DNA of 58,503 bases from Clostridia bacterium (GCA_034003745.1 JAVEYA010000004.1:1-58503); one strand, 5' to 3'. Numbered from the stretch's first letter, positions 7,159 to 30,206 are shown. Notes: generated by a model not told the origin, from the letters alone. Numbers and translations are program-made.

Positions 7159-7608
7159 TTAAAATAATTTCCGGCTATCCAGCAGCATCGTCACCGGTCC
7201 GTCGTTTTCCAGCCCAATTCGCATATGCTCCCGGAAGATCCCCGTTTTAACTGCAAGTCCCGACTGCCGGAGCAACTGTACATATAACTGATATAACCTA
7301 TCCGCCTCCTCTGGCGGCGCGGCTTCGGTGAAGCCCGGCCTGCGTCCCTGGCGGCAATCTCCATAGAGCGTGAACTGGGACACCGCCAAGATCTCTCCGC
7401 CGCTGTCTTTAACAGAAAGGTTCATCTTACCCGCTTTATCTTCAAAGATGCGCAAATGGGCCGTCTTCTCGGCAAGATATCCGGCGTCCTCTTCCGTATC
7501 CTCTCTGCCTACCCCCAGCAGCACCAGCAGCCCCGGCCCAATCCGGCTGATTTCATTTTCTCCGATCTGCACAGAGGCATTCGTCACTCTTTGGATAACA
7601 GCGCGCAT
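7159..7608 (-). CDS. dtd: D-aminoacyl-tRNA deacylase
   Basis: MRAVIQRV N-terminus, SQFTLYGD and NDGPVT motifs. Start trimmed to MRAVIQRV, which clears the relA stop at 7616. Confidence 0.93.
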
Positions 7609-7615
7609 TTCTTCC

Positions 7616-9799
7616 TCACTTACCCGGCGTAACACGGTAAACGTCTATGACGCCGCGCAGCCGTTTGATTTTCTCCATCACCAGACTTAACTGGCTTAAC
7701 GTCTTGATTTCTATCTTCAGATTTACCGTAGCCATATCATTCCGGGTGGAGCGCGCCCTGACCGCGTTAATCTGCACCTTCATATCGGCAATAGTCGTCA
7801 TAATATCGGTGGTCAAACGGGCCCGATCCATGGCCACCACTTCTATTTCCACCTGATAAGAACTTTCGTTTTCTTCATCCCAGGTCACATCCACAATACG
7901 TCCCTGTTCCTCCTGCAGAACATGATGCACATTGGAACAATCCGTCCGATGAACCGAGACGCCCCGCCCCCGGGTAATATAGCCGATGATGGGATCACCG
8001 GGCAGGGGATTGCAGCAATGCGCCAGCCGGACCAAAATATCATCTACCCCGCGCACCCGAACCCCTTGCTGTGATTTACCGTAGGCAGACCCCTTTTTCG
8101 CCTCCGCGACATAATCGGGGAAGAGACCGTCGTCACTTTGTTTTTTCAGCTTCAGCTGCTCGTCCCGCAGGCGGGTGATGATCTGCAGCGGGCTGATGGC
8201 GCCCTCTCCGATAGCGGCCAGCAAATCGTCCGCCGTAATCATGCTGAAACGCTTGACAATTTCCTGAAATTTTTCGGTTTTGAACAATTCCACCGGATCA
8301 AAGCCCTGCTTTTTAAATTCTTTTTCCAACAGCTCTTTGCCCCGGTGCACATTTTCTTCTCTTTTTTCCTTCTTGAACCAGTGCCGGATACGGTTCTTAG
8401 CCAGCGACGTCTTGACCACCTTCAGCCAGTCGCGGCTAGGTCCGTTGGCCTGTTTGGAAGTGAGGACATCCACGATATCCCCGTTTCTCAAAACATAATC
8501 CAAGGGTACAATGCGCCCGTTGACTTTGGCTCCAATGCAGCGGTGACCGATATCCGAGTGAATGCGATAGGCAAAGTCGACGGGCACGGAGCCTGCGGGC
8601 AACTCGATAACGTCGCCCTTGGGCGTGAAAACAAAAACAACATCGGCAAAGACGTCGATCTTCAACGTCTCCATAAATTCTTTGGTGTCTCTGACTTCCG
8701 TCTGCCACTCCAACAAATTGCGCAGCCAGTTCAGGCGCTTTTCCAAATCCTTACCGCCCGGCTTGGCGCCGCCTTCTTTGTATTTCCAATGGGCCGCGAT
8801 ACCATATTCAGCCGTGCGGTGCATCTCCCATGTCCGTATCTGAATCTCGAAAGGCTCCGCGCCGAAGCCCATCACTGTGGTATGCAGAGATTGATACATA
8901 TTGGGTTTGGGCATAGCGATATAGTCCTTGAATCTTCCCGGAACCGGCTTCCACAGTGTATGGATAATGCCCAGCGTGCCGTAACAGTCCTTGACATTTT
9001 CAACCAGGACCCGCACTGCGACCAGGTCAAAGATCTCATTTAATTCCCGGTTTTTGTCCAGCATCTTTTTATAAATGGAATAAAAATGTTTGGGCCTCCC
9101 GACAATATCCGCCTTGATGCCGACCTCGTCCAGTTTCTCTTTCAGATTTTGGATGACCTTTTCGATATAGACCAGGCGTTCCTGGCGCTTCATGGAGATT
9201 TTGTCCGCCAGATCGTAATACTTTTCCGGCTCCAGATAGCGGAAAGAGAGGTCCTCCAATTCCCATTTGAAGGCAAAAATACCGAGGCGATGGGCCAGCG
9301 GGGCAAAAATATCGATGGTTTCGCGGGCAATTTCTTTCTGCTTCCAGTCCGGATGGTGCTCCAGTGTACGCATATTATGCAGCCTGTCGGCCAGCTTGAT
9401 CAGAATCACCCGGATATCTTTGGCCATAGCCAAAAACATCTTGCGTAAATTCTCGACCTGCTGTTCCTCCTTGGTATGAAACTCCAGTTTGCCCAGCTTG
9501 GTCACGCCGCCAACCAGATAGGCCGTCTCCGCGCCAAAGGTCTTTTCCACGTCGGCCAGGGTAATCTTGGTGTCCTCCACCACATCGTGCAGAAGAGCCG
9601 CCGCAATAGTGGGCAGGTCGAGTTCCAGCTGCGCCAGCATTAGCGCTACAGCTACAGGATGAATGATATACGGTTCTCCGGAGTTCCGCAGCTGTCCGTC
9701 ATGCGCCTGGCGGGCCAGTTCATAGGCCTTATCGGCAATATTCAATTCTTCTGCCGTCAGGTATTTACCCAGACGTTCGGTTAACTCTTGATAGGACAA
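7616..9799 (-). CDS. relA: Bifunctional (p)ppGpp synthetase/hydrolase (RelA/SpoT, Rel)
   Basis: 727 aa. HD hydrolase domain (HDVVEDT), synthetase domain ([14 protein letters not shown]), and TGS and ACT regions. TTG start with GGTGGTGA upstream. Confidence 0.95.
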
Positions 9800-9815
9800 G
9801 CTGCTTCACCACCCT

Positions 9816-12800
9816 CTAGTTGCGTTTGCCCGGGGACAGACGCAGTATCTTCTTGGGATAGATCGGTTTATTAATACCGGCTAATAATTTGGCCTCCGGC
9901 TCCCCTAAAACGCTGCCGGCAAATTCCGCGAACGCTTCTTCCTCCTCCAAGCCTTCCAGGTAGCGCACTGAATCGGTCAAATCCAGTTTTCCCGGAGGGG
10001 GCGGGGCAAAATGGATAAAACGTTTGCCGCCTTCGACCTCGCGCAGGAGCAAGCCCATCTCTTCCAGAATAGCCAGCGCCGCGGAAGCCGTCTGTTCACG
10101 GAAATTTTTCACACCCGCCTTTTGCATGGCCTCCTTGAGTTCGGCATTGGTCAGGACCAGGGGATTTGTTTCCTTCGCTTTGTCCCGCAGCAATACATAT
10201 AATTTGCCCAGGAGCTCGCGGGAAGGAGCCGCACTCTCCAAAATCAGCTCATTTAAGGTTCTGTCTCTTTCCCCAAAGAGGATATGAATATAGGCTTCCT
10301 CATTGTTGCGTCCCGCCCGCCCGGACAGCTGGTTGAATTCAGCGTGGGAGAAGCTCAGGTGATACAATACCACGTGCCTGATATCCGGTATATCGATCCC
10401 CTCGCCAAAGGCGCTGGTCGTAACCATTACGCGCAATTCACCGGAGCGGAACATTTCCTCCAGGCTCTTCCTGTACTCGCTGTGCAGGCCGCCGTGATAA
10501 AAACCGATTTCTTCTTTGGCCGGCGGGTAATAGCTTCTAAGATCGGAGGCCAGCTGATAAGCCTGCCTGCGGCTGTTCACATAAATAACAATTTTCTCTC
10601 CCCGGGCGGTCAACTCCAGCAAATAGGCCAGTTTATCCCTCTCCCCCCGGCGGTCGGTCAGCCGGAGATTGGTCCGGACATGTTCTTCGATTATGGCGCT
10701 TTCACACAAAAGCGTATCCGCAATTCTTTGCGCCGTTTCGTCATCAGCGGTAGCGGTAACCGCCAGCGCCAACGGCCGGCCTAATCTTTCCCAGCTCGAT
10801 TTCAGCATCCGGTAGCCGCGGCGCTTGCCTTTAGCCAGATGATGCGCCTCATCTACTACAAAGAAACCAATTTTATGCTGGATAAGAGCGAATTTATCGA
10901 CATGAAAGGAGAGAAATTCCGGCGTTGTCAGCACAATATCGATCTCGCCGCGTCCCAGCCGTACAAAAAAATCCTGTTTTTCTCCCAGATTCATGGAACC
11001 GGTAATCGCTTCGGCGGTTACCCCCAGCGGCGCCATTTTCAAGCGCAGGCGCTGCAATTGGTCGTTGACCAGGGAGCGCAGCGGATAGACGATAACGCTG
11101 ACTTGATTCTTCACCAGCGCAAGGTGGGCGCCCATACTTTGAAAGATTGCCGATTTGCCCCGGCCTGTAGCGAGTATGGCCAGCGTATTGCGGCCTGCCT
11201 GCAGTTCCTGCAGCGCTTCCTCTTGTTTGGGATGATAGGGAAGAGCGCCGATAACAGCCTGACGAATCTTTGGGGCCAATTCTTCCGGTGTAAGTTTCTG
11301 CAGCTCCGTCCTGGCCTGTTGCAGGGAAACTTTATCCGTCTCCCGGGTGGTTCTTTTAATACATAAATTTAAGCCCAGCGTATCTTTATCCCGCCCTGTC
11401 ACCTGGGTCACAAAGGCTTCATAGCGAGCTCCCGCATCGATAACCGGAGCAAGGACCCTGCTCAGGCAGGCATTCAGATAGCCGGCCTGTTCCCCTTGCC
11501 AGAAGACCGCTACGGCATTGGCGTCATATTCATTCAAAGGCTCCCGCACAAGCTCCGCCGAGTCCCCGTCCTGTATCCGGCTGAGCACGCTCTGGCGTTC
11601 GGCAAAAGTTACGCCCACCGCTTTGGTGAAAAATTCCTCACGGTTGATAATATCACGGTAATAATCATCCTCCAGCCAAATTTCGCCTTCGGCATATAAC
11701 CTGTCTAAAAAAGACAGGGGTATGTAAGGATTGTCCCTTTCTAGGGCAGGCTTGAGGTCCTTGATGATCAGCTGCAGCCTGGAATGTCCCCTGTATGTAT
11801 TCAGCTCCGGCACAACAGCCAAGTCGTACCCGTCGGAAGAAACCAGCGCCCCCTTATAGGCGCCCTTTTGAAAGGCAATCCCGTCCAGATACCCGTCGTC
11901 CCCCAGAACCCTCATCTTTAAATGGTTCTTTTTGCTGCCTACTTCTTTGCAGTGGGCCAGTTGTTTATTCCTTAATATCAACAGCGGACAAGGATTATGA
12001 TAACCGAAAGGCGCCAGCATTGCAATCTCTTCCGCCAAAGCGCGCGAGAGCTCCGGCCACAAGACTTCGCAATCCGCTTTTAGAACAGGAATCAGGTCCT
12101 TTTCCGTCAACGTCTCCTCTGCATACCGATTTAAGGATTCCCGGAAGGCAGGAATCTGCGCTTCTTCCAGCGATAAACCGGCCGCCATTCCATGTCCGCC
12201 GAAATTGAGCAGGTAGTTTTTATGCCGTTGCAGGGATTCAAAGAGATTGAAGCCGGGAATGCTGCGGCCCGAACCCTTGCCGACGCCATCCTCGACGGAA
12301 ATGACCAGCGCCGGGCGGTAAAACTTATCTACCAGCCGTGAGGCGACAATGCCGATGACCCCATGGTGCCAGTTCTGCCCAGCCAGGACAATCACCTTAT
12401 CTCTGGCCAGGTCGACCTGCTCTTCCAGCAAGGCTAAAGCTTGTTCTAAAATATTCGTTTCCAGCTCCTGGCGGGCTCTATTCTCAGAATCCAGCGCGCA
12501 GGCTATTTCTTGCGCCGCTGCAGTGTCTGCGGTAATCAAAAGTTCCACCGCTTTGTCGGCCTTGCCTAATCTGCCGCTGGCATTCAGTCGGGGCGCAATG
12601 AAATACCCGATGGCCTCGCTGTTTACTTCATAGTTATTATTCCCACTGACTGCCAGTAAAGCCGCTACACCCGGCCTGGCCGAATTCTGCAGTCTTTTCA
12701 GGCCTTCTTTGACCAAAATTCTATTCTCATTCCTTAAAGGGACAATATCGGCGATGGTCCCCAGCGCTACCAGGTCCAGGAGTTCCAGGCAATACGCCTC

Positions 12801-13442
12801 CAGGCCGAAGGGTTTCCCCAGCGCCTGGGCCAGCTTAAAGGCGACCCCCACCCCGGCCAGTTCCGACCAGGGCTGAAGAGAATCCGCAAGTTTAGGATTG
12901 ATAATGGCTTGTGCCTGGGGCAATATTTCCGGCGGCTCATGGTGGTCGGTAATTACCATTTCCAGCCCCAGGGAAGAAGCGTATCGTACTTCCTCCACCG
13001 CGGCGATACCGCAGTCCACCGTCAGCACCAAGTCTATGCCTTGCGCTTTTGCTTTGTCCAGCGCCTCTATGTTTAAGCCGTAGCCTTCTTCCAAACGCTG
13101 GGGGATATAATAACTGACCCGGCCTCCCGCCTGCTGTAAAAAACTATACAGGACAGCTACTGCGGTAATACCATCCACATCGTAGTCCCCATAAATCAGG
13201 ATATGCTCTCCTTGGGTAATCGCCTGATAAACGCGGGCCATTCCTTCCTGCATACCCGGCAGGACCAGTGGGTCCTGCAGATCATCCATATTCGCGCGCA
13301 AAAATGCCTTTACCGCATCCGCGGATTTAAACCCCCTATTTCCTAAAACCCTCGCCAGGACGGCGGATATTCCCAATTCTTTGCTTAACGACAAGACGGC
13401 TTGGTCCGTTGTTCCGATTTGCCAAATTTGTTTCTCTCGCAT
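9816..13442 (-). CDS. recJ: RecJ 5'-3' ssDNA exonuclease fused to a HIRAN-like domain and a RecQ-like SF2 helicase (single 1208-aa ORF)
   Basis: aa 1-565 (nt 11748-13442): DHH/DHHA1 motifs DYDVDG, VDCG, ITDHH, GTIADIV, GGHGMAAG, plus an OB-like tail. aa ~604-697 (nt 11352-11633): VGVTF..RQ, REPLNEYDANAV, GYL (HIRAN-like). aa ~735-1050 (nt ~10263-11240): ATGRGKS, VVDEAHHL, VTATA, FYHGGL, QLSGRAGR. aa ~1080-1150: wHTH-like. Confidence 0.9.
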   Translation of the reverse strand: MREKQIWQIGTTDQAVLSLSKELGISAVLARVLGNRGFKSADAVKAFLRANMDDLQDPLVLPGMQEGMARVYQAITQGEHILIYGDYDVDGITAVAVLYSFLQQAGGRVSYYIPQRLEEGYGLNIEALDKAKAQGIDLVLTVDCGIAAVEEVRYASSLGLEMVITDHHEPPEILPQAQAIINPKLADSLQPWSELAGVGVAFKLAQALGKPFGLEAYCLELLDLVALGTIADIVPLRNENRILVKEGLKRLQNSARPGVAALLAVSGNNNYEVNSEAIGYFIAPRLNASGRLGKADKAVELLITADTAAAQEIACALDSENRARQELETNILEQALALLEEQVDLARDKVIVLAGQNWHHGVIGIVASRLVDKFYRPALVISVEDGVGKGSGRSIPGFNLFESLQRHKNYLLNFGGHGMAAGLSLEEAQIPAFRESLNRYAEETLTEKDLIPVLKADCEVLWPELSRALAEEIAMLAPFGYHNPCPLLILRNKQLAHCKEVGSKKNHLKMRVLGDDGYLDGIAFQKGAYKGALVSSDGYDLAVVPELNTYRGHSRLQLIIKDLKPALERDNPYIPLSFLDRLYAEGEIWLEDDYYRDIINREEFFTKAVGVTFAERQSVLSRIQDGDSAELVREPLNEYDANAVAVFWQGEQAGYLNACLSRVLAPVIDAGARYEAFVTQVTGRDKDTLGLNLCIKRTTRETDKVSLQQARTELQKLTPEELAPKIRQAVIGALPYHPKQEEALQELQAGRNTLAILATGRGKSAIFQSMGAHLALVKNQVSVIVYPLRSLVNDQLQRLRLKMAPLGVTAEAITGSMNLGEKQDFFVRLGRGEIDIVLTTPEFLSFHVDKFALIQHKIGFFVVDEAHHLAKGKRRGYRMLKSSWERLGRPLALAVTATADDETAQRIADTLLCESAIIEEHVRTNLRLTDRRGERDKLAYLLELTARGEKIVIYVNSRRQAYQLASDLRSYYPPAKEEIGFYHGGLHSEYRKSLEEMFRSGELRVMVTTSAFGEGIDIPDIRHVVLYHLSFSHAEFNQLSGRAGRNNEEAYIHILFGERDRTLNELILESAAPSRELLGKLYVLLRDKAKETNPLVLTNAELKEAMQKAGVKNFREQTASAALAILEEMGLLLREVEGGKRFIHFAPPPPGKLDLTDSVRYLEGLEEEEAFAEFAGSVLGEPEAKLLAGINKPIYPKKILRLSPGKRN

Positions 13443-13487
13443 CTTTTTCTCCCTGCAGGTAAGGCTACACCCTTATTTGTGTATTAT

Positions 13488-13515
13488 GAAAAGAAGAGAC
13501 CGGCGTCTCTTCTTT
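13488..13515 (-). terminator. Rho-independent terminator after the LapA-domain gene
   Basis: aaagaagagac / cggc loop / gtctcttcttt, running into T residues on the minus strand. Confidence 0.55.
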
Positions 13516-13538
13516 CACTGGCGTTTGTCCACAATTTT

Positions 13539-13928
13539 TTATACTGTTTTGCTTCCCCCGGATTCTGTTTCTGAAACGGTCTCCGGCTTAATTCCTTCAT
13601 TCCCGGCACTTTCGGCTCCCGCCGTATTCTTCGGCTCAGTCTGCCCTGCGCAGGTGTTGAGCTTCTCTTCCAGCTTCTTCACTTGCTTTTCCAGTTCATC
13701 CTTACGGTGATTCAGCTGCCGTATCTTCATCCAGGCGCCGACCTGCTTGAACAGGCCGAAAAAGTACAATACCAATGCGCCGGCCACGGCGGCCCCCAGT
13801 AAGACCAGCACCAGCGAAACGGAAAACGACCATGTTAAAAAATTAATCGACACCACTTCCGTATTCTGTACGGCAAATGTTGCCACCAACAACGAAAATA
13901 TCAAAGCGCTAATGAGATAAATTTGCAT
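13539..13928 (-). CDS. LapA-domain (DUF1049) membrane protein with a C-terminal coiled coil
   Basis: 129 aa with two N-terminal TM helices (VQNTEVVSINFL...), then a charged heptad region (KDELEKQVKKLEEKL). Confidence 0.7.
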   Translation of the reverse strand: MQIYLISALIFSLLVATFAVQNTEVVSINFLTWSFSVSLVLVLLGAAVAGALVLYFFGLFKQVGAWMKIRQLNHRKDELEKQVKKLEEKLNTCAGQTEPKNTAGAESAGNEGIKPETVSETESGGSKTV

Positions 13929-13993
13929 TTTCTCACCTCTTTCTAAAGAAATATTCGCCTAAATTCCTCATATTCCTGCAATAAAGAAAACTT

Positions 13994-14067
13994 GGCTTCG
14001 CCGAGCCCTGCAACGGCGAAGCCTTCATTGCATATAAAAATCCCGTCCGCCTAAGCGAACGGGATTT
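13994..14067 (-). terminator. Two tandem hairpins downstream of secF
   Basis: aaatcccgt/acgggattt (14038-14067) is followed by TTTT on the minus strand. A second 10-bp GC-rich stem, ggcttcgccg/cggcgaagcc, lies at 13994-14023. Confidence 0.55.
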
Positions 14068-14073
14068 CTATAT

Positions 14074-15021
14074 TTACGCTCTCGAAGCCCTTAAAGCCTT
14101 TTTCGTTTTCTTCTTGTGCTCCTGCCACATGGTCCAGAGCGGACCGGCAATACAAATCGTGGAGTAGCAGCCGGAGACGATACCGAACATCATCGGCAGG
14201 GCAAATGCCCTGATGGAACTGATATCGTACATCTGGGCGAAGATATAGACTACGGTAATGCTCACAAACACGGCAAGGTTCGTATTGATCGAGCGGGACA
14301 TAGACTGGGTAATGCTCAAATTGACCAGTTCGTCCACCGGGACTTTATTGCCCAAAAGACGTTCGTTCTCCCGGATCCGGTCATAAATAACAATCGTATC
14401 GTTGATGGAAAAACCAATGATGGTCAATATGGCCGCGATAAACGAATCACTGATGGGGATTTTAAAAATAATAAATACCGCGGTTACGATCAAAGCATCG
14501 TGGAGTAAGGCTACAATAGCCATGGCCCCTGCGGAAAGACCGCCGATTTTACGGAAACGGACCCCCACGTAAACGAGAATAAGCAGGAAGGAAAGGGCGA
14601 TGGCAATCATTCCGTTGGTAAAAAATCTTCGTCCGATAAAGGGTTCTACCGTCAGCGATTCGGACAGGGTGAACTGGACGTCCGGGAAAGCCTTGGTCAA
14701 AGCGGCGGTAACGGATTCCTGTTCCTGGGAAGTCAGCGCTTCATTGCTGGGCAGGCTGACAATCAGCTTCTGTTCCGTCTGGGCCAGGTTCGTCTGCGTC
14801 TGGGCATTGGTCACCCGGCTCAACTCTTCACCGACAAGCTGGCCGGCTTGTTCGGCGTCAACGGTTCCCGTATAGGTGTATTTCAGGATACTGCCGCCCC
14901 GGAACTGGATATCCAGCTGCAGGCCGTTTAGAAAAATGGCCGCTACGCCAATCAACATCAAGCAAATGGAAATCGCAAAGAAAATCTTGCGGTATTGGTA
15001 GAATTTAATCACTTTATTCAT
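14074..15021 (-). CDS. secF: Protein translocase subunit SecF
   Basis: 315 aa, 6-TM SecF topology, conserved FSINDTIVIYDRIRE. Overlaps the secD stop by 4 nt. Confidence 0.93.
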   Translation of the reverse strand: MNKVIKFYQYRKIFFAISICLMLIGVAAIFLNGLQLDIQFRGGSILKYTYTGTVDAEQAGQLVGEELSRVTNAQTQTNLAQTEQKLIVSLPSNEALTSQEQESVTAALTKAFPDVQFTLSESLTVEPFIGRRFFTNGMIAIALSFLLILVYVGVRFRKIGGLSAGAMAIVALLHDALIVTAVFIIFKIPISDSFIAAILTIIGFSINDTIVIYDRIRENERLLGNKVPVDELVNLSITQSMSRSINTNLAVFVSITVVYIFAQMYDISSIRAFALPMMFGIVSGCYSTICIAGPLWTMWQEHKKKTKKALRASRA

Positions 15022-24237: not shown

Positions 24238-25275
24238 CTAACCCTCCTGAAATAAAGACAATCCCTCATCCTGTCCATCTTTCCTGTTATACTTAATATT
24301 CAAATGCTGATAGGCCAACGGGGTAGCCACCCGACCGCGGGGCGTGCGCTGCAGGAAACCCAGCTGCAGCAAAAAGGGCTCATAGACGTCCTCAATAGTG
24401 GAGGTCTCCTCGCTGATGGCCGCAGCCAGCGTTTCCACGCCCACCGGACCCCCGCCAAACTTTTTGATGATGGCCGCAAGCATTTGCCTGTCGATATCAT
24501 CCAGTCCCAAATTATCGATTTCCAACAGGTTCAGCGCCCGGTCGGCTATCTTTTTGCTGATGGAATTCTCCCCGTCGACCTGGGCGAAATCACGCACTCT
24601 TTTTAAAAGACGGTTGGCGATCCGGGGAGTTCCCCGGGCCCGTTTGCCGATCTCTTCGGCTCCTTGAGGCTCAATGCCGATCTTTAAGATTTGCGCCGCT
24701 CTCTCAATAATGGTTACCAATTCTTCCTGCTTATAAAATTCCAGGCGGCTGACCACGCCAAACCGGTCTCTTAAGGGTGCGCTCAAATTGCCGATGCGGG
24801 TGGTGGCGCCGACCAGCGTAAAGGGCGGCAGTTCCAGTCGGATGGAACGGGCGCTGGGTCCTTTGCCGATCACGATATCCAGCGAGAAGTCTTCCAGCGC
24901 CGGATAGAGTACTTCTTCCACCGCGCGGTTTAAACGGTGGATTTCATCAATAAAGAGAACATCCCCCGGCTGCAGATTGGTCAGAATTGCCGCCAAATCG
25001 CCGGGACGCTCGATAGCCGGCCCGGAGGTAGCGCGAATCTGCGCTTCCATTTCCACCGCGATAATATTGGCCAAGGTCGTCTTGCCCAATCCCGGCGGTC
25101 CGTACAGGAGCACGTGGTCCAGCGCTTCTTTTCTTTGTTTGGCGGCCTGGATAAAGACGGCCAGATTCTCTTTGGCTTTTTCCTGCCCTATGTAGTCCCG
25201 TAAACGGTGTGGTCTTAATTTCTGTTCATCTGCTTCATCAATAGCGAGCATTGGTGAAACAATCCTCTCTTCCAT
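24238..25275 (-). CDS. ruvB: Holliday junction branch migration ATPase RuvB
   Basis: LRPxxLxDYIGQ, Walker [16 protein letters not shown]. Start moved to ATG MEERIV, which has GGAGGAAG 5 nt upstream. Confidence 0.96.
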
Positions 25276-25293
25276 GAACGCTTCCTCCGTCAA

Positions 25294-25896
25294 TCAATAT
25301 TTGGCCAGCTGCTTCAAAGCTTGGCGCAGCAATTCTCCGGCGGTGACATTCGTCTGGTCGGGTCCCGGAAAAGGAACTGCGTTTTGCGCCTCATGGGCGC
25401 TGTATCCCAAAGCGACCAGCCCTGCTACCGCCTCCTGGCGGACGTCCATCTCCCGGGAGGCCGCGACGGGCTGGGCCCACTCGGCCGCTTCTTGTTTACC
25501 GACTTTATCTTTGAGCTCCAGCACAATGCGGTCCGCCGTCTTCTTTCCGACCCCGGGTATGCCGGTCAGGGCTTTGGTATCGCCCCATACGATAACGCGG
25601 CGTAATTCTGAAACCCGGTACTTCGAAAGAATGCTTAAAGCGAGTTTGGGACCGATGCCGGAAATAGTCAGCAAGGTAATAAAGAGTTCTTTCTCTTCCG
25701 GATTCTGAAACCCGTATAAACTGAACTCCTCTTCCCGAAAATACAAATAAGTATATAAGCAGATTTCCTCATGCAGGCGGGGCAATCCCTCCACGGTCAG
25801 GGCGGGTACAGACAGGCGGAAAGCGAATCCCCCCGTCTTGACAACGACACTGTTTAGACCTTTATTCAGCAGTTCTCCCTGGATGAATTCCAGCAA
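25294..25896 (-). CDS. ruvA: Holliday junction DNA helicase subunit RuvA
   Basis: HhH motifs (ISGIGPKLA, IPGVGKKTA) and a C-terminal domain III. TTG start giving MLEFIQGEL with GAGGTG upstream. GTG 25905, which overlaps the ruvC stop, is the alternative. Confidence 0.92.
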   Translation of the reverse strand: MLEFIQGELLNKGLNSVVVKTGGFAFRLSVPALTVEGLPRLHEEICLYTYLYFREEEFSLYGFQNPEEKELFITLLTISGIGPKLALSILSKYRVSELRRVIVWGDTKALTGIPGVGKKTADRIVLELKDKVGKQEAAEWAQPVAASREMDVRQEAVAGLVALGYSAHEAQNAVPFPGPDQTNVTAGELLRQALKQLAKY

Positions 25897-25901
25897 ACTT
25901 C

Positions 25902-26396
25902 TCACCTCAAATTCCGGTTAAATTCAGAATGATATGAATTGGCGTGGCAAATACCGATGGCCAGCGCGTCGGCGGCATCATCGGGCCGGGGGATTTCGGT
26001 CAGATTCATGATCGCCTTGACCATGTACTGCACCTGCTGCTTCTCGGCCCGGCCGTATCCTACGACCGCCTGCTTGACCTGCAGAGGCGTATATTCATAC
26101 ACCGGCAACCCTTTTAAGGACGCGGCCAGGACAATTACGCCCCGGGCGTGTCCCACCGCCAAAGCGGTTTTAGCATTTTTATTGAAAAACAATTCTTCGA
26201 TGGCAATATGGTCCGGGCGGTATGTTTCGATTATTTTGTTGATTCCGGTAAAAATGGCATGGAGCCGTTCAGCCAAAGATAAATCATTCGTACTTTGAAC
26301 AACTCCATACTCAATCATTTTAAATTTATTGCCCTGATGCTCGACAACGCCATAACCGGTGATCGCCGTACCCGGGTCAATCCCAAGAATAATCAT
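25902..26396 (-). CDS. ruvC: Crossover junction endodeoxyribonuclease RuvC
   Basis: 164 aa. [28 protein letters not shown]. Confidence 0.95.
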
Positions 26397-27239: not shown

Positions 27240-28892
27240 CTAAAACAGGTTCGTCACCTGCATAATAAACATGGCCAGAAGGGCCGCGGCCAGAGCATAC
27301 AGGACGCAGGGCAGGAAGTTTCTCCTGATAATGGTCCCTTCCACGCCGATGGCGCCAACCGTCGCGCAGGCAGCCACCACATTGTTCACACAAATCATAT
27401 TTCCCACCGCCCCTCCTACCACCTGCAGGGCGACAATCATCGTGTGGGACATCTGCAATTGGGTAGCCACGTCATACTGAAAAGCCGCGAAAAGGATATT
27501 GGAAACGGTATTCGAGCCGGAAATGAAGGAACCCAGCACTCCCACAAAAGGGGAGACCAGGGGCCAGGCCGAGCCAAAGATAGCTACCGCCGCACTGGCC
27601 ATGGTTACCATCATACTATCCAGGCCGGCCGGATTGATATTGGAATTGAGCATCAGCTGCACCATGGCGACGCCGAAAATCAGGGCAATAAAGGGGCTGG
27701 CCAGTTGTTTGAAGGTCAGTTTCCAGGCTTCCGCCGTCTGCTTCAAAGACATCCGATGGAGAAAGACCGTGACCACGGCAATACCGGCAAAGACCGTTCC
27801 CGGTGAAAAGAGGTAGGCCAGTTTATAAGTAAAAGGGGCATAACCGAAAATAGCCGGTACGATCAGAACCTGCTCATTCATCCAGGCTTTTAAGCCCAAA
27901 GCGGGGATTCTCGTCAGCACCAGGATTAAGGCGATAATAAAGTAGGGTGTCCAAGCCAAAAGAAGCGGCATCGCCGGTTTTTCGTTTGTCTCCTCCGGCA
28001 CTTCCGTGTGCACGCCTTTCCAATTCTCCTCCCAACTGCTTCTTGCGGGGAAATCCCATTCATCTTTGGGCATTAAGAAACCCTTCTTGGCAGCAAAGAG
28101 CACCACGGGCAGCGCAATGAGAGCGCCCACCAAAGAGGGCAGCTCGTTGGCCGTAAACCAGGCGATAATAAAAAAGGGAATGGTGAAGGCCAATCCGGCA
28201 AAGATGGCGAAAGGAGCGGCGGCCAAAGCCGGCTTGATGGATTTTTCTTTGCCGAAATATTTGGTCAAAAAACACAAGCCCAAAAGCGGCACAAAAGTAC
28301 CTATCGAGGCATGCAGGACCGCAATCCCTTTGGATAAAAGAAAACGGAAAGCTTCCATTGACATGGGCGAGGCGGCTATGGCCTGTTCCAGAACGGAGAG
28401 AGCACCGAAGGTGGGTACCCCCACCACGCCGAAACTTACCGGGGTAGAGTTAAAGATAAGGGCAATCATGGCCGCCGCCAGGGGCGGAAAACCCAACCCC
28501 ACCAAAAGGGGGCCGGCCAGGGCGGCGGGTGTGCCGAAACCGGCGGCGCCTTCGATAAAGGCCCCAAAAAGCCAGCCGACAATAACCGCCTGAATCCGGC
28601 GGTCTTTGGTAATTCCCCGGAAACCGTGGTTGATGGAGGCCATCCCCCCGCTTGCTTCCAGCGTATTTAAAATTAAAATTGCTCCGAAAATCACCAATAA
28701 AACATCGAATGATTTCAGGGCGCCATAAATACTGGCTCCCACAACTGTGACCGGCTCCATCTTCCAGCCGACTACGGCCATCAGGCAGGTCAGGATCCAG
28801 GCCACCGGCAGAGCCTTTCTGGCCGGAACATTAACGCCTGCCATGAGGATTACTACTACCAGAATAGGCAAAAACGCCATAAAAGCCAACAT
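27240..28892 (-). CDS. lctP: L-lactate permease (LctP family)
   Basis: About 550 aa, polytopic, LctP-type N-terminal region ([21 protein letters not shown]). Adjacent to larA. Start set to ATG MLAFMAF; GTG 28907 is the alternative. Confidence 0.87.
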
Positions 28893-28931
28893 CACGTGTC
28901 CCCACACCCCTCGCTTCTCTATGCTGATACT

Positions 28932-30206
28932 TTAAAGAACTATAACCGCTACACCATCAGGAATTACGGTAATTTTGGCGCTTTCGGCATCGATTTTATC
29001 ATAAGCCATTTGCAAGGCTGTCTCCAAATCCGGCGCCCATTTCATAAACATGGTTTCCACCATCTCCCGGGGGGCTTCCGTGATCATGATCACTTCATGC
29101 TTTAAGAGAATGCGGGACAGGATTTGCGATTCCCACTGGTCCGCTACCGTATCACAGGCCAGGCGTTTGACTATATCCTGATGAATGCCGTCCACATCCT
29201 TCGCTTCGGCAAAGGTATTGTAGAACGCTTCTCCGCCGTGCCCATCGGCACACTGGGAGAAGATGATGATGACCCCGCCGGGCTTGCAGGAAGCTTCCGC
29301 CGCGGCCATAGACTTGACAGCCTGGTAAATATTTTGATCCAGCGGATAGCCCCCGTTGGAGGTTATAACAATGTCCGCAGGAACCGCTTTAACCCCGGCC
29401 AACTCTTTCACAAATTCACATCCGGCTACGTGCGCGTCGTTGAAATGTCCGGCAAAAGCCTGAATGACCTTCTTTTCTGCGTCAATAACCACATTCAGGA
29501 TGAAGGCGAGACCTGCCTTCTCAGCGGCATAAATCATATCCGTATGGATGGGGTTGCCGGCGAGGAGACCGCTTCGGGCCTGCGGCGAGGCAATGAAGGC
29601 CGCGCAGTGATTGGCCATTACCGTGGCCGCGCTGGCAATCCCGGGCAGCACGCTTTTGCGGCCGCCGGAAAAACCGGCAAAGAAATGCGGCTCAATAAAA
29701 CCTTCCGCAATTAACAAATCGGTGTCCAGAGCCAGTTTATTCAGCTTAAGGCTGCCGCCGGAGGGAAGGATCCCCAAATCAACCATGGCCTCATCATCAA
29801 AGGCGTTATGTACGACGATTTTCTCTCCGGCAACAATCTCGGCGCCATATTTATTCTTCAATTCATCCAGCGTAGTAAGCCGATGATACCCCGTCGCCAC
29901 CAGGATGGTGATATCGGCTTGGGGATTGCCCCGGCGGATTTCGCTTAAGATGAGCGGCATGGTCACATGGCTGGGCACCGGCCGGGTATGGTCGCTGGAG
30001 ATAATCACGATTCTTTTTTTCCCCTGGACCAGTTCCTTCAGCGGCCGGGAATGAACCGGATTGTCGAGGGCTTTTTGCACAATTTCCGCTTCCGTACCCG
30101 TTTTCTTATAATCATGCGCTTGGGAGACCAACAGCCCGGCCAGTTTGTCCTCGGGAATGTCAATCGTTACAGATCCTTTACCATAAGGGATATTGATTTT
30201 ACTCAT
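28932..30206 (-). CDS. larA: Nickel-pincer-dependent lactate racemase LarA
   Basis: 424 aa, DUF2088/LarA fold. By direct count His108, His174, Lys184 and His200 sit at exactly the positions reported for the catalytic His pair, the NPN-tethering Lys and the Ni-binding His of L. plantarum LarA. Confidence 0.88.
   Translation of the reverse strand: MSKINIPYGKGSVTIDIPEDKLAGLLVSQAHDYKKTGTEAEIVQKALDNPVHSRPLKELVQGKKRIVIISSDHTRPVPSHVTMPLILSEIRRGNPQADITILVATGYHRLTTLDELKNKYGAEIVAGEKIVVHNAFDDEAMVDLGILPSGGSLKLNKLALDTDLLIAEGFIEPHFFAGFSGGRKSVLPGIASAATVMANHCAAFIASPQARSGLLAGNPIHTDMIYAAEKAGLAFILNVVIDAEKKVIQAFAGHFNDAHVAGCEFVKELAGVKAVPADIVITSNGGYPLDQNIYQAVKSMAAAEASCKPGGVIIIFSQCADGHGGEAFYNTFAEAKDVDGIHQDIVKRLACDTVADQWESQILSRILLKHEVIMITEAPREMVETMFMKWAPDLETALQMAYDKIDAESAKITVIPDGVAVIVL

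Follow-up and report, generated by a model that had tools for sequence, protein, structure and literature searches.

A RecJ nuclease joined to a HIRAN domain and a RecQ-like helicase core in a single polypeptide at the recJ locus of a Clostridia bacterium

The stretch of DNA analysed here, referred to throughout as the window, comprises 58,503 nucleotides from Clostridia bacterium (GCA_034003745.1 JAVEYA010000004.1:1-58503) and carries, at 9816..13442 on the minus strand, a single unbroken open reading frame (ORF) of 1208 codons plus a stop codon. Translation of the window, Pfam and NCBIfam matches and collinear full-length homologues identify this ORF as a fusion of a RecJ nuclease, a HIRAN domain, a RecQ-like helicase core and a PF10141-like tail. 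A preliminary reading of the DNA made from its letters alone (the sequence-only reading) had given the ORF its correct length and continuity but no strand; on the plus strand the interval yields only stops, and the gene lies on the minus strand, as do all of its features described below. Its start codon is an ATG at 13442, preceded by a Shine-Dalgarno-like GGGAGA (13448..13453, read from the sequence, 7 nt upstream of the ATG), and relA/spoT begins with a TTG 16 nt beyond the stop of the ORF. The upstream genes are queA, tgt, an HD protein gene, secD, secF and a small LapA-domain gene, and downstream lie relA/spoT, dtd, a metallo-beta-lactamase (MBL)-fold gene and a radical-SAM gene. This is the canonical Firmicute recJ neighbourhood, and the neighbouring genes bear out the placement between secDF and relA-dtd that had been proposed. 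Within the window there is no second copy of the RecJ, HIRAN or helicase part, and the GC content of 0.52-0.55 is even over both halves of the fusion gene.

The RecJ part, a 5'-3' single-stranded DNA (ssDNA) exonuclease according to Pfam, TIGR00644 and Foldseek, occupies residues 1-565 (11748..13442). It contains DHH (residues 80-229, 12756-13205, E 1e-27), DHHA1 (residues 348-442, 12117-12401, E 7e-17) and RecJ_OB (PF17768, residues 457-562, 11757-12074, E 1e-23), all above their Pfam gathering scores. The NCBIfam recJ equivalog TIGR00644 was passed with 574.2 bits where the cut-off is 396.9, the alignment pairing residues 26-563 with positions 2-546 of the 546-position profile. Moreover, a Foldseek search with an AlphaFold2 (AF2) model retrieved RecJ of S. 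aureus, D. radiodurans and T. thermophilus over ~555-590 columns (E 1e-48 to 1e-35; PDB entries 8y30, 5f56 and 2zxo). The motifs DYDVDG, VDCG, ITDHH, GTIADIV and GGHGMAAG and the OB domain, which the sequence-only reading had listed, are all present in the translation and agree with the Pfam matches. Specifically, D86, D88, D90, D143, D166, H167, H168, D232 and H417 are kept in 205-206 of 206 relatives, and all are intact in the window protein. Judged by these motifs and profiles, residues 1-565 are a complete RecJ with intact catalytic motifs and a predicted 5'->3' ssDNA exonuclease.

A linker with conserved helices (residues 566-602, 11637..11747, FLDxLF...LEDDxYRDI), recognised from alignments and the AF2 model, where it has a predicted local distance difference test (pLDDT) score of 68-83, leads into the HIRAN domain at residues 603-698 (11349..11636). 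The linker is, as far as alignments tell, part of the HIRAN-helicase module, because stand-alone HIRAN-helicases carry it too. The HIRAN assignment is based on PF08797 (residues 603-684, 49.3 bits against a cut-off of 24.7, E 4.3e-13), on the AF2 model and on residue conservation; direct sequence matches to the bacterial HIRAN structure 3k2y and to HLTF's HIRAN are weak, and a precomputed HIRAN annotation is present for nearly all homologues in the cluster search. The AF2 prediction is a beta-barrel plus a helix, with strands at 603-609, 628-633, 644-648, 651-656, 673-682 and 690-698 (AF2 model numbering plus 8, as the model covers residues 9-1208). The conserved signature comprises F604, T606, K607, GVTF at 610-613, R616, Q617, R633, N637, D640, A643, G654, T682 and G683, kept in at least 84-100% of 191 domains, with F613, N637 and D640 conserved in at least 94%. 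The motifs VGVTF..RQ, REPLNEYDANAVAV and GYLN previously picked out as HIRAN-like are likewise found in the translation. The RDPNNPYDKNA segment of HLTF aligns with the family-conserved R633, N637, D640 and A643 of the window protein, and also with Y639, which is not conserved in the family. The end-binding residues of HLTF compared here are an R/Y72-type aromatic, N91, Y93, D94 and A97.

The HIRAN domain of HLTF binds the 3'-hydroxyl of ssDNA (PMC7804152) and holds the terminal dinucleotide stacked by Y72 on one side and Y93 on the other (PMC4666394). HLTF and Rad5 likewise join a HIRAN domain to a superfamily 2 (SF2) ATPase, their motor acts on damaged replication intermediates, and the HLTF-type end-binding residues are largely conserved in the window HIRAN. 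They differ, however, in being eukaryotic proteins with a SNF2 motor and a RING domain and no nuclease, whereas the fusion is bacterial and combines a RecQ-like motor with a RecJ nuclease. In the Pfam scan of the window protein, SNF2-rel_dom remained below its cut-off (13 bits against 24.9, E 0.054) and RING gave no match; by these profile tests the window protein is not a member of the SNF2-type HIRAN translocases of the HLTF/Rad5 kind.

The third element is an SF2 helicase core of two RecA-like domains at residues 727-1050 (10293..11264), RecQ-like by Pfam, PDB matches and Foldseek, with DEAD at residues 738-905 (E 6e-21) and Helicase_C at residues 937-1046 (E 1e-24). With these two, every domain family named in the sequence-only reading (DHH, DHHA1, RecJ_OB, HIRAN, DEAD and Helicase_C) scores above gathering. 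Helicase motifs 0 (Q740), I (GTGRGKS, 759-764), II (DEAHH, 864-868), III (TATA, 896-899) and VI (QxxGRAGR, 1038-1045) can be assigned, and Q740, G760-K763-S764, D864-E865-H867, T896/T898 and Q1038/R1042/R1045 are invariant or nearly so in the family, and the window protein has them all; a table guided by hidden Markov models (HMMs) shows intact helicase motifs in about 232 of 241 relatives. The closest PDB sequences are RecQ (E 7e-32), RECQ4 and WRN (range E 1e-32 to 1e-25), and Foldseek matched the helicase part to the cores of RecQ, RECQL5, BLM and WRN at E about 1e-19 to 1e-17.

Nevertheless, both RecQ cut-offs were missed: recQ_fam (TIGR00614) reached 163.2 against 219.8, and recQ (TIGR01389) reached 183.6 against 640.2, the match covering only positions 5-348 of the 591 in the profile. 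RQC, RecQ_Zn_bind and HRDC gave no Pfam match in the window protein even at E <= 1. The protein ends ~160 residues past the helicase core, and the Zn-binding module is absent, with zero cysteines in residues 1046-1208 and a helical hairpin at the corresponding position. A winged helix is predicted at ~1099-1145 in the AF2 model, and Foldseek alignments with RecQ cores span ~500 columns, without an RQC match in Pfam. The loop between motifs II and III of E. coli RecQ carries W/F aromatics; the aromatic-rich loop is absent from the window protein, where DEAHHLAKGK---RRGYRML keeps the conserved R874 and Y877 without these aromatics and is 3 residues shorter than in relatives. Since the RecQ cut-offs failed and the Zn module, HRDC and aromatic loop are missing, the motor is, on profile and motif grounds, a RecQ-like SF2 helicase but not a RecQ family member. 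The motifs ATGRGKS, VVDEAHHL, VTATA, FYHGGL and QLSGRAGR of the complete SF2 core described earlier are all present in the translation.

The tail (residues 1051-1208, 9819..10292), delimited by the AF2 model and by homology to PF10141, consists of a helical hairpin, a winged helix, a long helix and a terminal INxPIYP motif, and was modelled with a pLDDT of 91.6. The winged-helix-like tail noted beforehand is therefore supported by prediction and, further, is identified as a homologue of PF10141 (ssDNA-exonuc_C). In a Pfam scan of 35 diverse family tails, this family was matched by 13 (best E 3.8e-7), one of which reached the gathering score (26.5 against 26.4), and every other family was matched at most 3 times; the window's own tail, scanned alone, had no Pfam match. 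An hhalign comparison of the tail alignment with the post-OB extensions of Listeria, Enterococcus and S. aureus RecJ, whose recJ genes (L040-L042) were taken from bacterial contigs mislabelled as phages, gave a probability of 95.0% and E 3.5e-8 over 117 columns. The relationship emerged only from the many-tail Pfam scans and hhalign: Foldseek with the isolated tail returned generic MarR/PadR-type winged helices (E >= 0.016) and neither RecQ RQC nor 8y30, and phmmer searches of PDB sequences with the pseudo-helicase P0247, together with a tail profile, did not link the C-terminal regions. At the level of the family, sequence comparison indicates that the fusion tail is homologous to the uncharacterised PF10141 domain of Bacillus/Listeria/Staphylococcus-type RecJ.

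The long RecJ of Bacillus and Staphylococcus (DHH-DHHA1-OB plus PF10141, e.g., PDB 8y30) has an orthologous core (Foldseek E 1e-47), a homologous C-terminal domain and the same chromosomal neighbourhood as the fusion, but differs in having neither a HIRAN nor, from OB domain to tail, any helicase that can be recognised. Two histories would account for this: loss of the helicase in the Bacilli, or its insertion before a pre-existing tail. That the leading ~100 residues of the Bacilli extension preserve a relic of the second RecA domain was considered and rejected as unsupported, since this stretch, compared alone, gave an hhalign probability of 0.2% and E 0.26 and did not surpass a reversed control. 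INxPIYP itself, at the extreme C-terminus (~1190-1197; window 9819-9860), is conserved in fused and stand-alone forms and is absent or altered in forms with a dead helicase.

The distribution of the architecture was surveyed in a search of 5.8 billion protein clusters, the figures being drawn from the best 120 matches. Among these, more than 110 distinct 90%-identity clusters have the same Pfam architecture, at 43-67% identity and collinear across 97-100% of the query, from NCBI, JGI, ENA and Logan assemblies that include isolate genomes on contigs of 0.3-2.7 Mb; sharing on this scale, isolates included, answers the earlier worry about an assembly artefact. All named relatives in the cluster search are annotated simply as "RecJ", and the named sources, from which the species-level distribution was taken, are Peptococcaceae/Peptococcia metagenome-assembled genomes (MAGs), Firmicutes HGW-12 and an Actinomycetota MAG; the isolates Thermincola ferriacetica (318-kb contig) and Selenobaculum/Anaerosinus gibii (2.68-Mb replicon) also carry the fusion. 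A search of genome contigs with the single-sequence query gave 2 close loci, and the order tgt-yajC-HD-secD-secF-[fusion]-relA-dtd-MBL is found in Thermincola ferriacetica and two Peptococcia MAGs, as in the window. Furthermore, the pairwise divergences of the RecJ and helicase halves are correlated (Spearman 0.65, 101 homologues), which, together with the even GC content, fits long co-descent of both halves as one gene. Given the shared synteny, the lack of a second copy, the flat GC and this correlation, the fusion gene is the housekeeping recJ of its lineage, inherited as a unit.

Conservation of the catalytic sites was followed through two alignments, one of 21 and one of 101 homologues, and through tables of up to 241 sequences built with HMM guidance, where the intact and near-invariant ATPase/helicase motifs indicate purifying selection on catalysis, as read from sequence. 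To examine variation, 203 full-length RecJ-containing members, which form a biased sample, were classed by family HMMs and by inspection of their motifs. The helicase is active and HIRAN present in 160 of the 203, including the window protein; HIRAN is weak in 2 proteins with an active helicase (P0158 and P0166) and absent from 22 (Peptococcia P0046, Slackia and Actinomycetes MAGs). A dead helicase accompanies an intact HIRAN in 10/203 (four 50% clusters around P0218, P0224, P0226 and P0244), a degenerate HIRAN in 3/203 (Natroniella, Fuchsiella and P0240) and no HIRAN in 5/203 (Eubacteriales P0247 and relatives), and one member (P0172) has a partial helicase with HIRAN present. The dead-helicase forms have lost Walker A, DExH and motif VI and kept the scaffold, and the RecJ motifs are intact in every such form examined.

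The dead-helicase proteins are P0237, P0247, P0254, P0238, P0201, P0229, P0240, P0250 (Natroniella), P0255 (Fuchsiella), P0218, P0224, P0226 and P0244; the P0218 group retains a perfect HIRAN signature, whereas in others the signature has decayed. A rule that HIRAN decays once the helicase dies would cover Natroniella, Fuchsiella and P0240, but it was discarded because P0218, P0224, P0226 and P0244 combine a dead helicase with an intact HIRAN. At least 2 kinds of clean HIRAN deletion occur, and sequence similarity points to a secondary loss, the HIRAN-less proteins being nearer to the window protein than are many of those with HIRAN. Active fusions lacking HIRAN at the same secDF-relA locus include L004/L005 (P0046), P0089, P0106, P0119, P0176 (Slackia MAG) and P0202 (Actinomycetes MAG), and some fusions (P0174, P0169 and P0208) have an insert of 60-170 residues between OB and helicase with no Pfam match.

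A full HMMER scan of residues 566-1208 against 1.84 billion representatives gave 640 50%-identity clusters at E <= 1e-30, the top matches being mostly fusions of ~1200 residues. Because proteins of ~630-680 residues start exactly at the conserved linker helix and end at the same INxPIYP motif, the linker, HIRAN, helicase and tail constitute one discrete module that also exists alone. Some short proteins were rejected as stand-alone genes, being contig fragments: P0137 begins at the edge of its contig, and P0272, which belongs to a fused cluster, is truncated. Two stand-alone HIRAN-helicase-tail genes, P0127 (L006, 265-2193) and P0145 (L007, 6001-7974), are 39-43% identical to the C-terminal half of the window protein and are surrounded by small ORFs, HTH_3 repressors and members of PHROG families 37082, 10048 and 5889 (E 1e-40 to 1e-57), with a weak DnaD_N match among the neighbours; this context looks like that of a phage or mobile element. 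Two others, P0152 (L039, 6463-8496) and P0160 (L036, 632-2533), lie directly downstream of secD-secF without a RecJ part, and other genes on the contig of the former are for flagellar export and for a TonB-dependent receptor. In an unbootstrapped neighbour-joining (NJ) tree of helicase cores the stand-alone forms are scattered and nested among fused forms, which weakly suggests that they derive from fusions by fission or escape rather than from an outgroup.

In viral collections, tblastn of INPHARED phage genomes with the HIRAN-helicase module gave helicase-core matches of ~30% identity, none spanning HIRAN, and many INPHARED records that go under the label "UNVERIFIED_ORG: Listeria/Enterococcus/Staphylococcus phage" consist of chromosomal contigs from bacteria, bearing recJ and recQ, which calls for care with phage matches from this collection. 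The IMG/VR scan gave one close relative (L008), the remainder being generic helicases of 21-32% identity; this relative, a HIRAN-less RecJ-helicase fusion at 7401-9506, ends its "viral" contig and is probably host DNA flanking a prophage, not a viral gene. A fold search of BFVD retrieved RecJ-like proteins and helicases only as separate proteins, with no fused architecture. Overall, the architecture of the fusion, the integrity of its motifs, its conservation, its locus and its module structure are shown by the analysis.

Around the gene, a terminator-like 12-bp hairpin (GAAAGAAGAGAC-GCCG-GTCTCTTCTTTT) lies at 13489-13516 on the minus strand, 23 nt past the stop of the LapA-domain gene and ~45 nt upstream of the recJ ATG; given this hairpin, the recJ-relA pair may have its own promoter. 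A promoter and terminator scan of 9500-14200 found nothing exceeding the shuffled expectation and did not call the hairpin. Further along the minus strand, ruvC, ruvA and ruvB lie at 24238-26396, ~11 kb upstream of the fusion gene and on the same strand, followed by sigI/rsgI-like genes, spoIID, queA and tgt. From these genes, the host is a spore-forming Bacillota with repair genes grouped along one strand. At 27240-30206 (minus strand), an LctP-family lactate permease gene stands beside that of the nickel-dependent lactate racemase LarA (627 bits), both unrelated to the fusion.

Several known systems offer points of comparison. RecQ and RecJ acting as separate proteins (the RecF pathway of E. 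coli and D. radiodurans; B. subtilis RecJ with RecQ/RecS) have the same two predicted activities and the same expected product, removal of the 5' strand leaving 3' ssDNA (PMC4846377), whereas the fusion is one chain with HIRAN in between and a motor without the RecQ Zn module, HRDC and aromatic loop. Human WRN, a RecQ helicase with a nuclease attached, and the DinG of B. subtilis and S. aureus (DinG: PMC12525004) also place a repair helicase and an exonuclease in a single chain, but their nucleases are of the DEDD 3'->5' type and N-terminal to the helicase, while that of the fusion is a DHH 5'->3' RecJ accompanied by HIRAN. PriA shows that bacteria already place a domain for 3'-end recognition, with a HIRAN-like fold, N-terminal to an SF2 helicase of 3'-5' polarity that works at forks (PMC5778457); it has no sequence relationship to the fusion, which lacks the Cys-rich region, carries RecJ and is not expected to have a primosome role. 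AddAB and RecBCD follow the same logic of a motor and nuclease physically coupled for end resection, but with SF1 helicases and PD-(D/E)XK nucleases in multi-subunit, Chi-regulated complexes without homology to the fusion. The window protein is a RecJ member with a bona fide HIRAN and not a member of RecQ, HLTF/Rad5 or PriA.

Since a complete RecJ and a RecQ-like motor are found in one chain, and in view of the known biochemistry of RecQ/RecJ, HLTF and PriA, we consider the protein to be probably, if by no means certainly, a helicase-nuclease in one polypeptide that cuts back the 5' strand where DNA has an end, a gap or a stalled fork, while HIRAN holds a 3' end. RecJ alone resects only 5'-tailed ends, the 3'-5' helicase RecQ being needed at blunt or 3'-tailed ends, and in UV-irradiated E. 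coli RecQ and RecJ act on blocked forks as well (Courcelle & Hanawalt 1999, as cited in PMC4846377, which is also the source for the former statements). In the proposed mechanism, the helicase would load on a duplex end, gap or fork and move 3'->5' along the retained strand in the manner of RecQ, and the tethered RecJ would degrade the displaced 5'-ended strand fed to it by the motor, giving the 3' single-stranded tail or gap needed by RecFOR/RecA. HIRAN would grip the 3' end at the junction of single strand and duplex, or the end of the nascent leading strand, which would place the motor on the correct strand and give substrate specificity. The covalent link would stand in for the cooperation of RecQ and RecJ that are separate proteins in E. 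coli and Deinococcus. The polarity, the coupling, the role of HIRAN and the pathway are what we infer here, and several considerations weigh against them. The RecQ-like 3'-5' polarity is an extrapolation to a motor that failed the RecQ cut-offs and the Zn, HRDC and aromatic-loop tests. The 3'-OH specificity of HIRAN is not universal, as Rad5 HIRAN does not require a 3'-OH (PMC7804152), which calls for caution on a sensor role. Although the AF2 model of residues 9-1208, from a 101-sequence alignment, has a pLDDT of 89.2 and a predicted template modelling score (pTM) of 0.69, its confidence is lowest in the connectors around residues 570-620 and 700; because these inter-domain linkers are its least confident parts, the orientation of nuclease and motor and the strand path from one to the other are not fixed by the model. 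Finally, because dead-helicase relatives keep RecJ, sometimes with an intact HIRAN, the module can serve RecJ without ATP-driven unwinding in some lineages, a point that does not apply to the window protein.

A specialisation for replication forks in the manner of PriA or HLTF, rather than general end resection, is compatible with the helicase-nuclease explanation and is a minority possibility in our estimation. HIRAN would here take the nascent leading 3' end at a stalled fork, the helicase would unwind the nascent lagging strand for degradation by RecJ, and the fork would thereby be cleared and could restart or reverse. The PriA 3'BD is homologous to the HLTF HIRAN in both structure and function (PMC5778457), fork regression by HLTF needs 3'-OH binding by HIRAN (PMC7804152), blocked forks are processed by RecQ/RecJ in UV-irradiated E. 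coli according to the report cited above, and HIRAN is kept in most members (160/203 full-length); yet no sequence feature separates forks from ends or gaps, and the 22 of 203 full-length relatives that lost HIRAN at the same locus with an active helicase imply that HIRAN is dispensable for the core job. We regard as rather doubtful a broader proposal, namely that the fusion is the ancestral Bacillota RecJ, an HLTF/PriA-like fork processor in which HIRAN clamps the nascent 3' end and the motor spools the opposite nascent strand into RecJ, replacing RecQ/RecS. If it were true, the PF10141 of Bacillus and Staphylococcus RecJ would be the last vestige of the helicase module, the dead-helicase forms of Halanaerobiia and Eubacteriales would be evolutionary intermediates, and the module would have escaped at least 2 times into phage-like elements as a stand-alone HIRAN-helicase.

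That the helicase part is no working motor but mainly a scaffold that binds DNA for RecJ or targets RecJ to it, making the protein a RecJ with elaborate C-terminal substrate recognition like the Bacillus-type RecJ with PF10141, seems improbable: the destruction of Walker A, DExH and motif VI beside intact RecJ motifs in Natroniella, Fuchsiella, Eubacteriales MAGs and the P0218 group, as well as a tail common to the helicase-less Bacilli RecJ, would fit it, but the window protein, like about 184 of the 203 full-length relatives, has kept all its ATPase/helicase motifs intact, which implies purifying selection on catalysis. Still harder to credit is a captured mobile-element or defence gene as the source of the HIRAN-helicase half, acting on phage or plasmid DNA, for instance by degrading invading linear DNA. 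Stand-alone homologues of 39-43% identity do occur among small ORFs, HTH_3 repressors and PHROG-family genes, and the core scores ~170-190 bits against PADLOC defence models (DpdF 194 bits, PsyrT 174 bits). The ordinary RecQ score is equal to these (184 bits), and membership of the defence helicases DpdF, PsyrT, BrxH and HamB was accordingly rejected as generic RecQ-likeness among housekeeping neighbours. Against such a capture, moreover, stand the conserved housekeeping operon in distant classes, the lack of defence neighbours, the even composition and the nesting of stand-alone within fused forms in the NJ tree. An assembly or annotation artefact joining adjacent recJ and helicase genes, which was a prior suspicion only, the window being one contig, can be given practically no weight when more than 110 independent clusters share the unbroken architecture and the linker helix at the junction is itself conserved.

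A full-text search of about 8.3 million papers and preprints found nothing relevant on RecJ with HIRAN, HIRAN with DHH or RecJ-helicase fusions, in keeping with the earlier statement that no characterisation was known, and the major survey of the RecJ family (PMC3307487) does not mention a RecJ-helicase fusion. The architecture is thus visible in public databases but unremarked and uncharacterised, and the PF10141 link and the helicase decay series are the most original by-products of the analysis. RecQ and RecJ cooperate, yet structural understanding is lacking for the step in which a 3'-5' motor passes the displaced 5' strand on to RecJ; a covalent fusion that occurs in nature amounts to a Rosetta-stone confirmation of the RecQ-RecJ partnership and is a single-chain object suited to cryo-electron microscopy and single-molecule work. 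HIRAN, best known from eukaryotic fork reversal by HLTF, is now found in a bacterial housekeeping repair enzyme, which offers a simple system for the contribution of 3'-end recognition to resection or fork processing. The relationship between the tail and PF10141 offers a first point of entry, functional as well as evolutionary, to the C-terminal RecJ domain of Bacillus, Listeria and Staphylococcus. Moreover, because the fusions are annotated simply as "RecJ", Peptococcia, Thermincola, Negativicutes and Coriobacteriia may be wrongly scored, in pathway reconstructions, as lacking a RecQ-type helicase.

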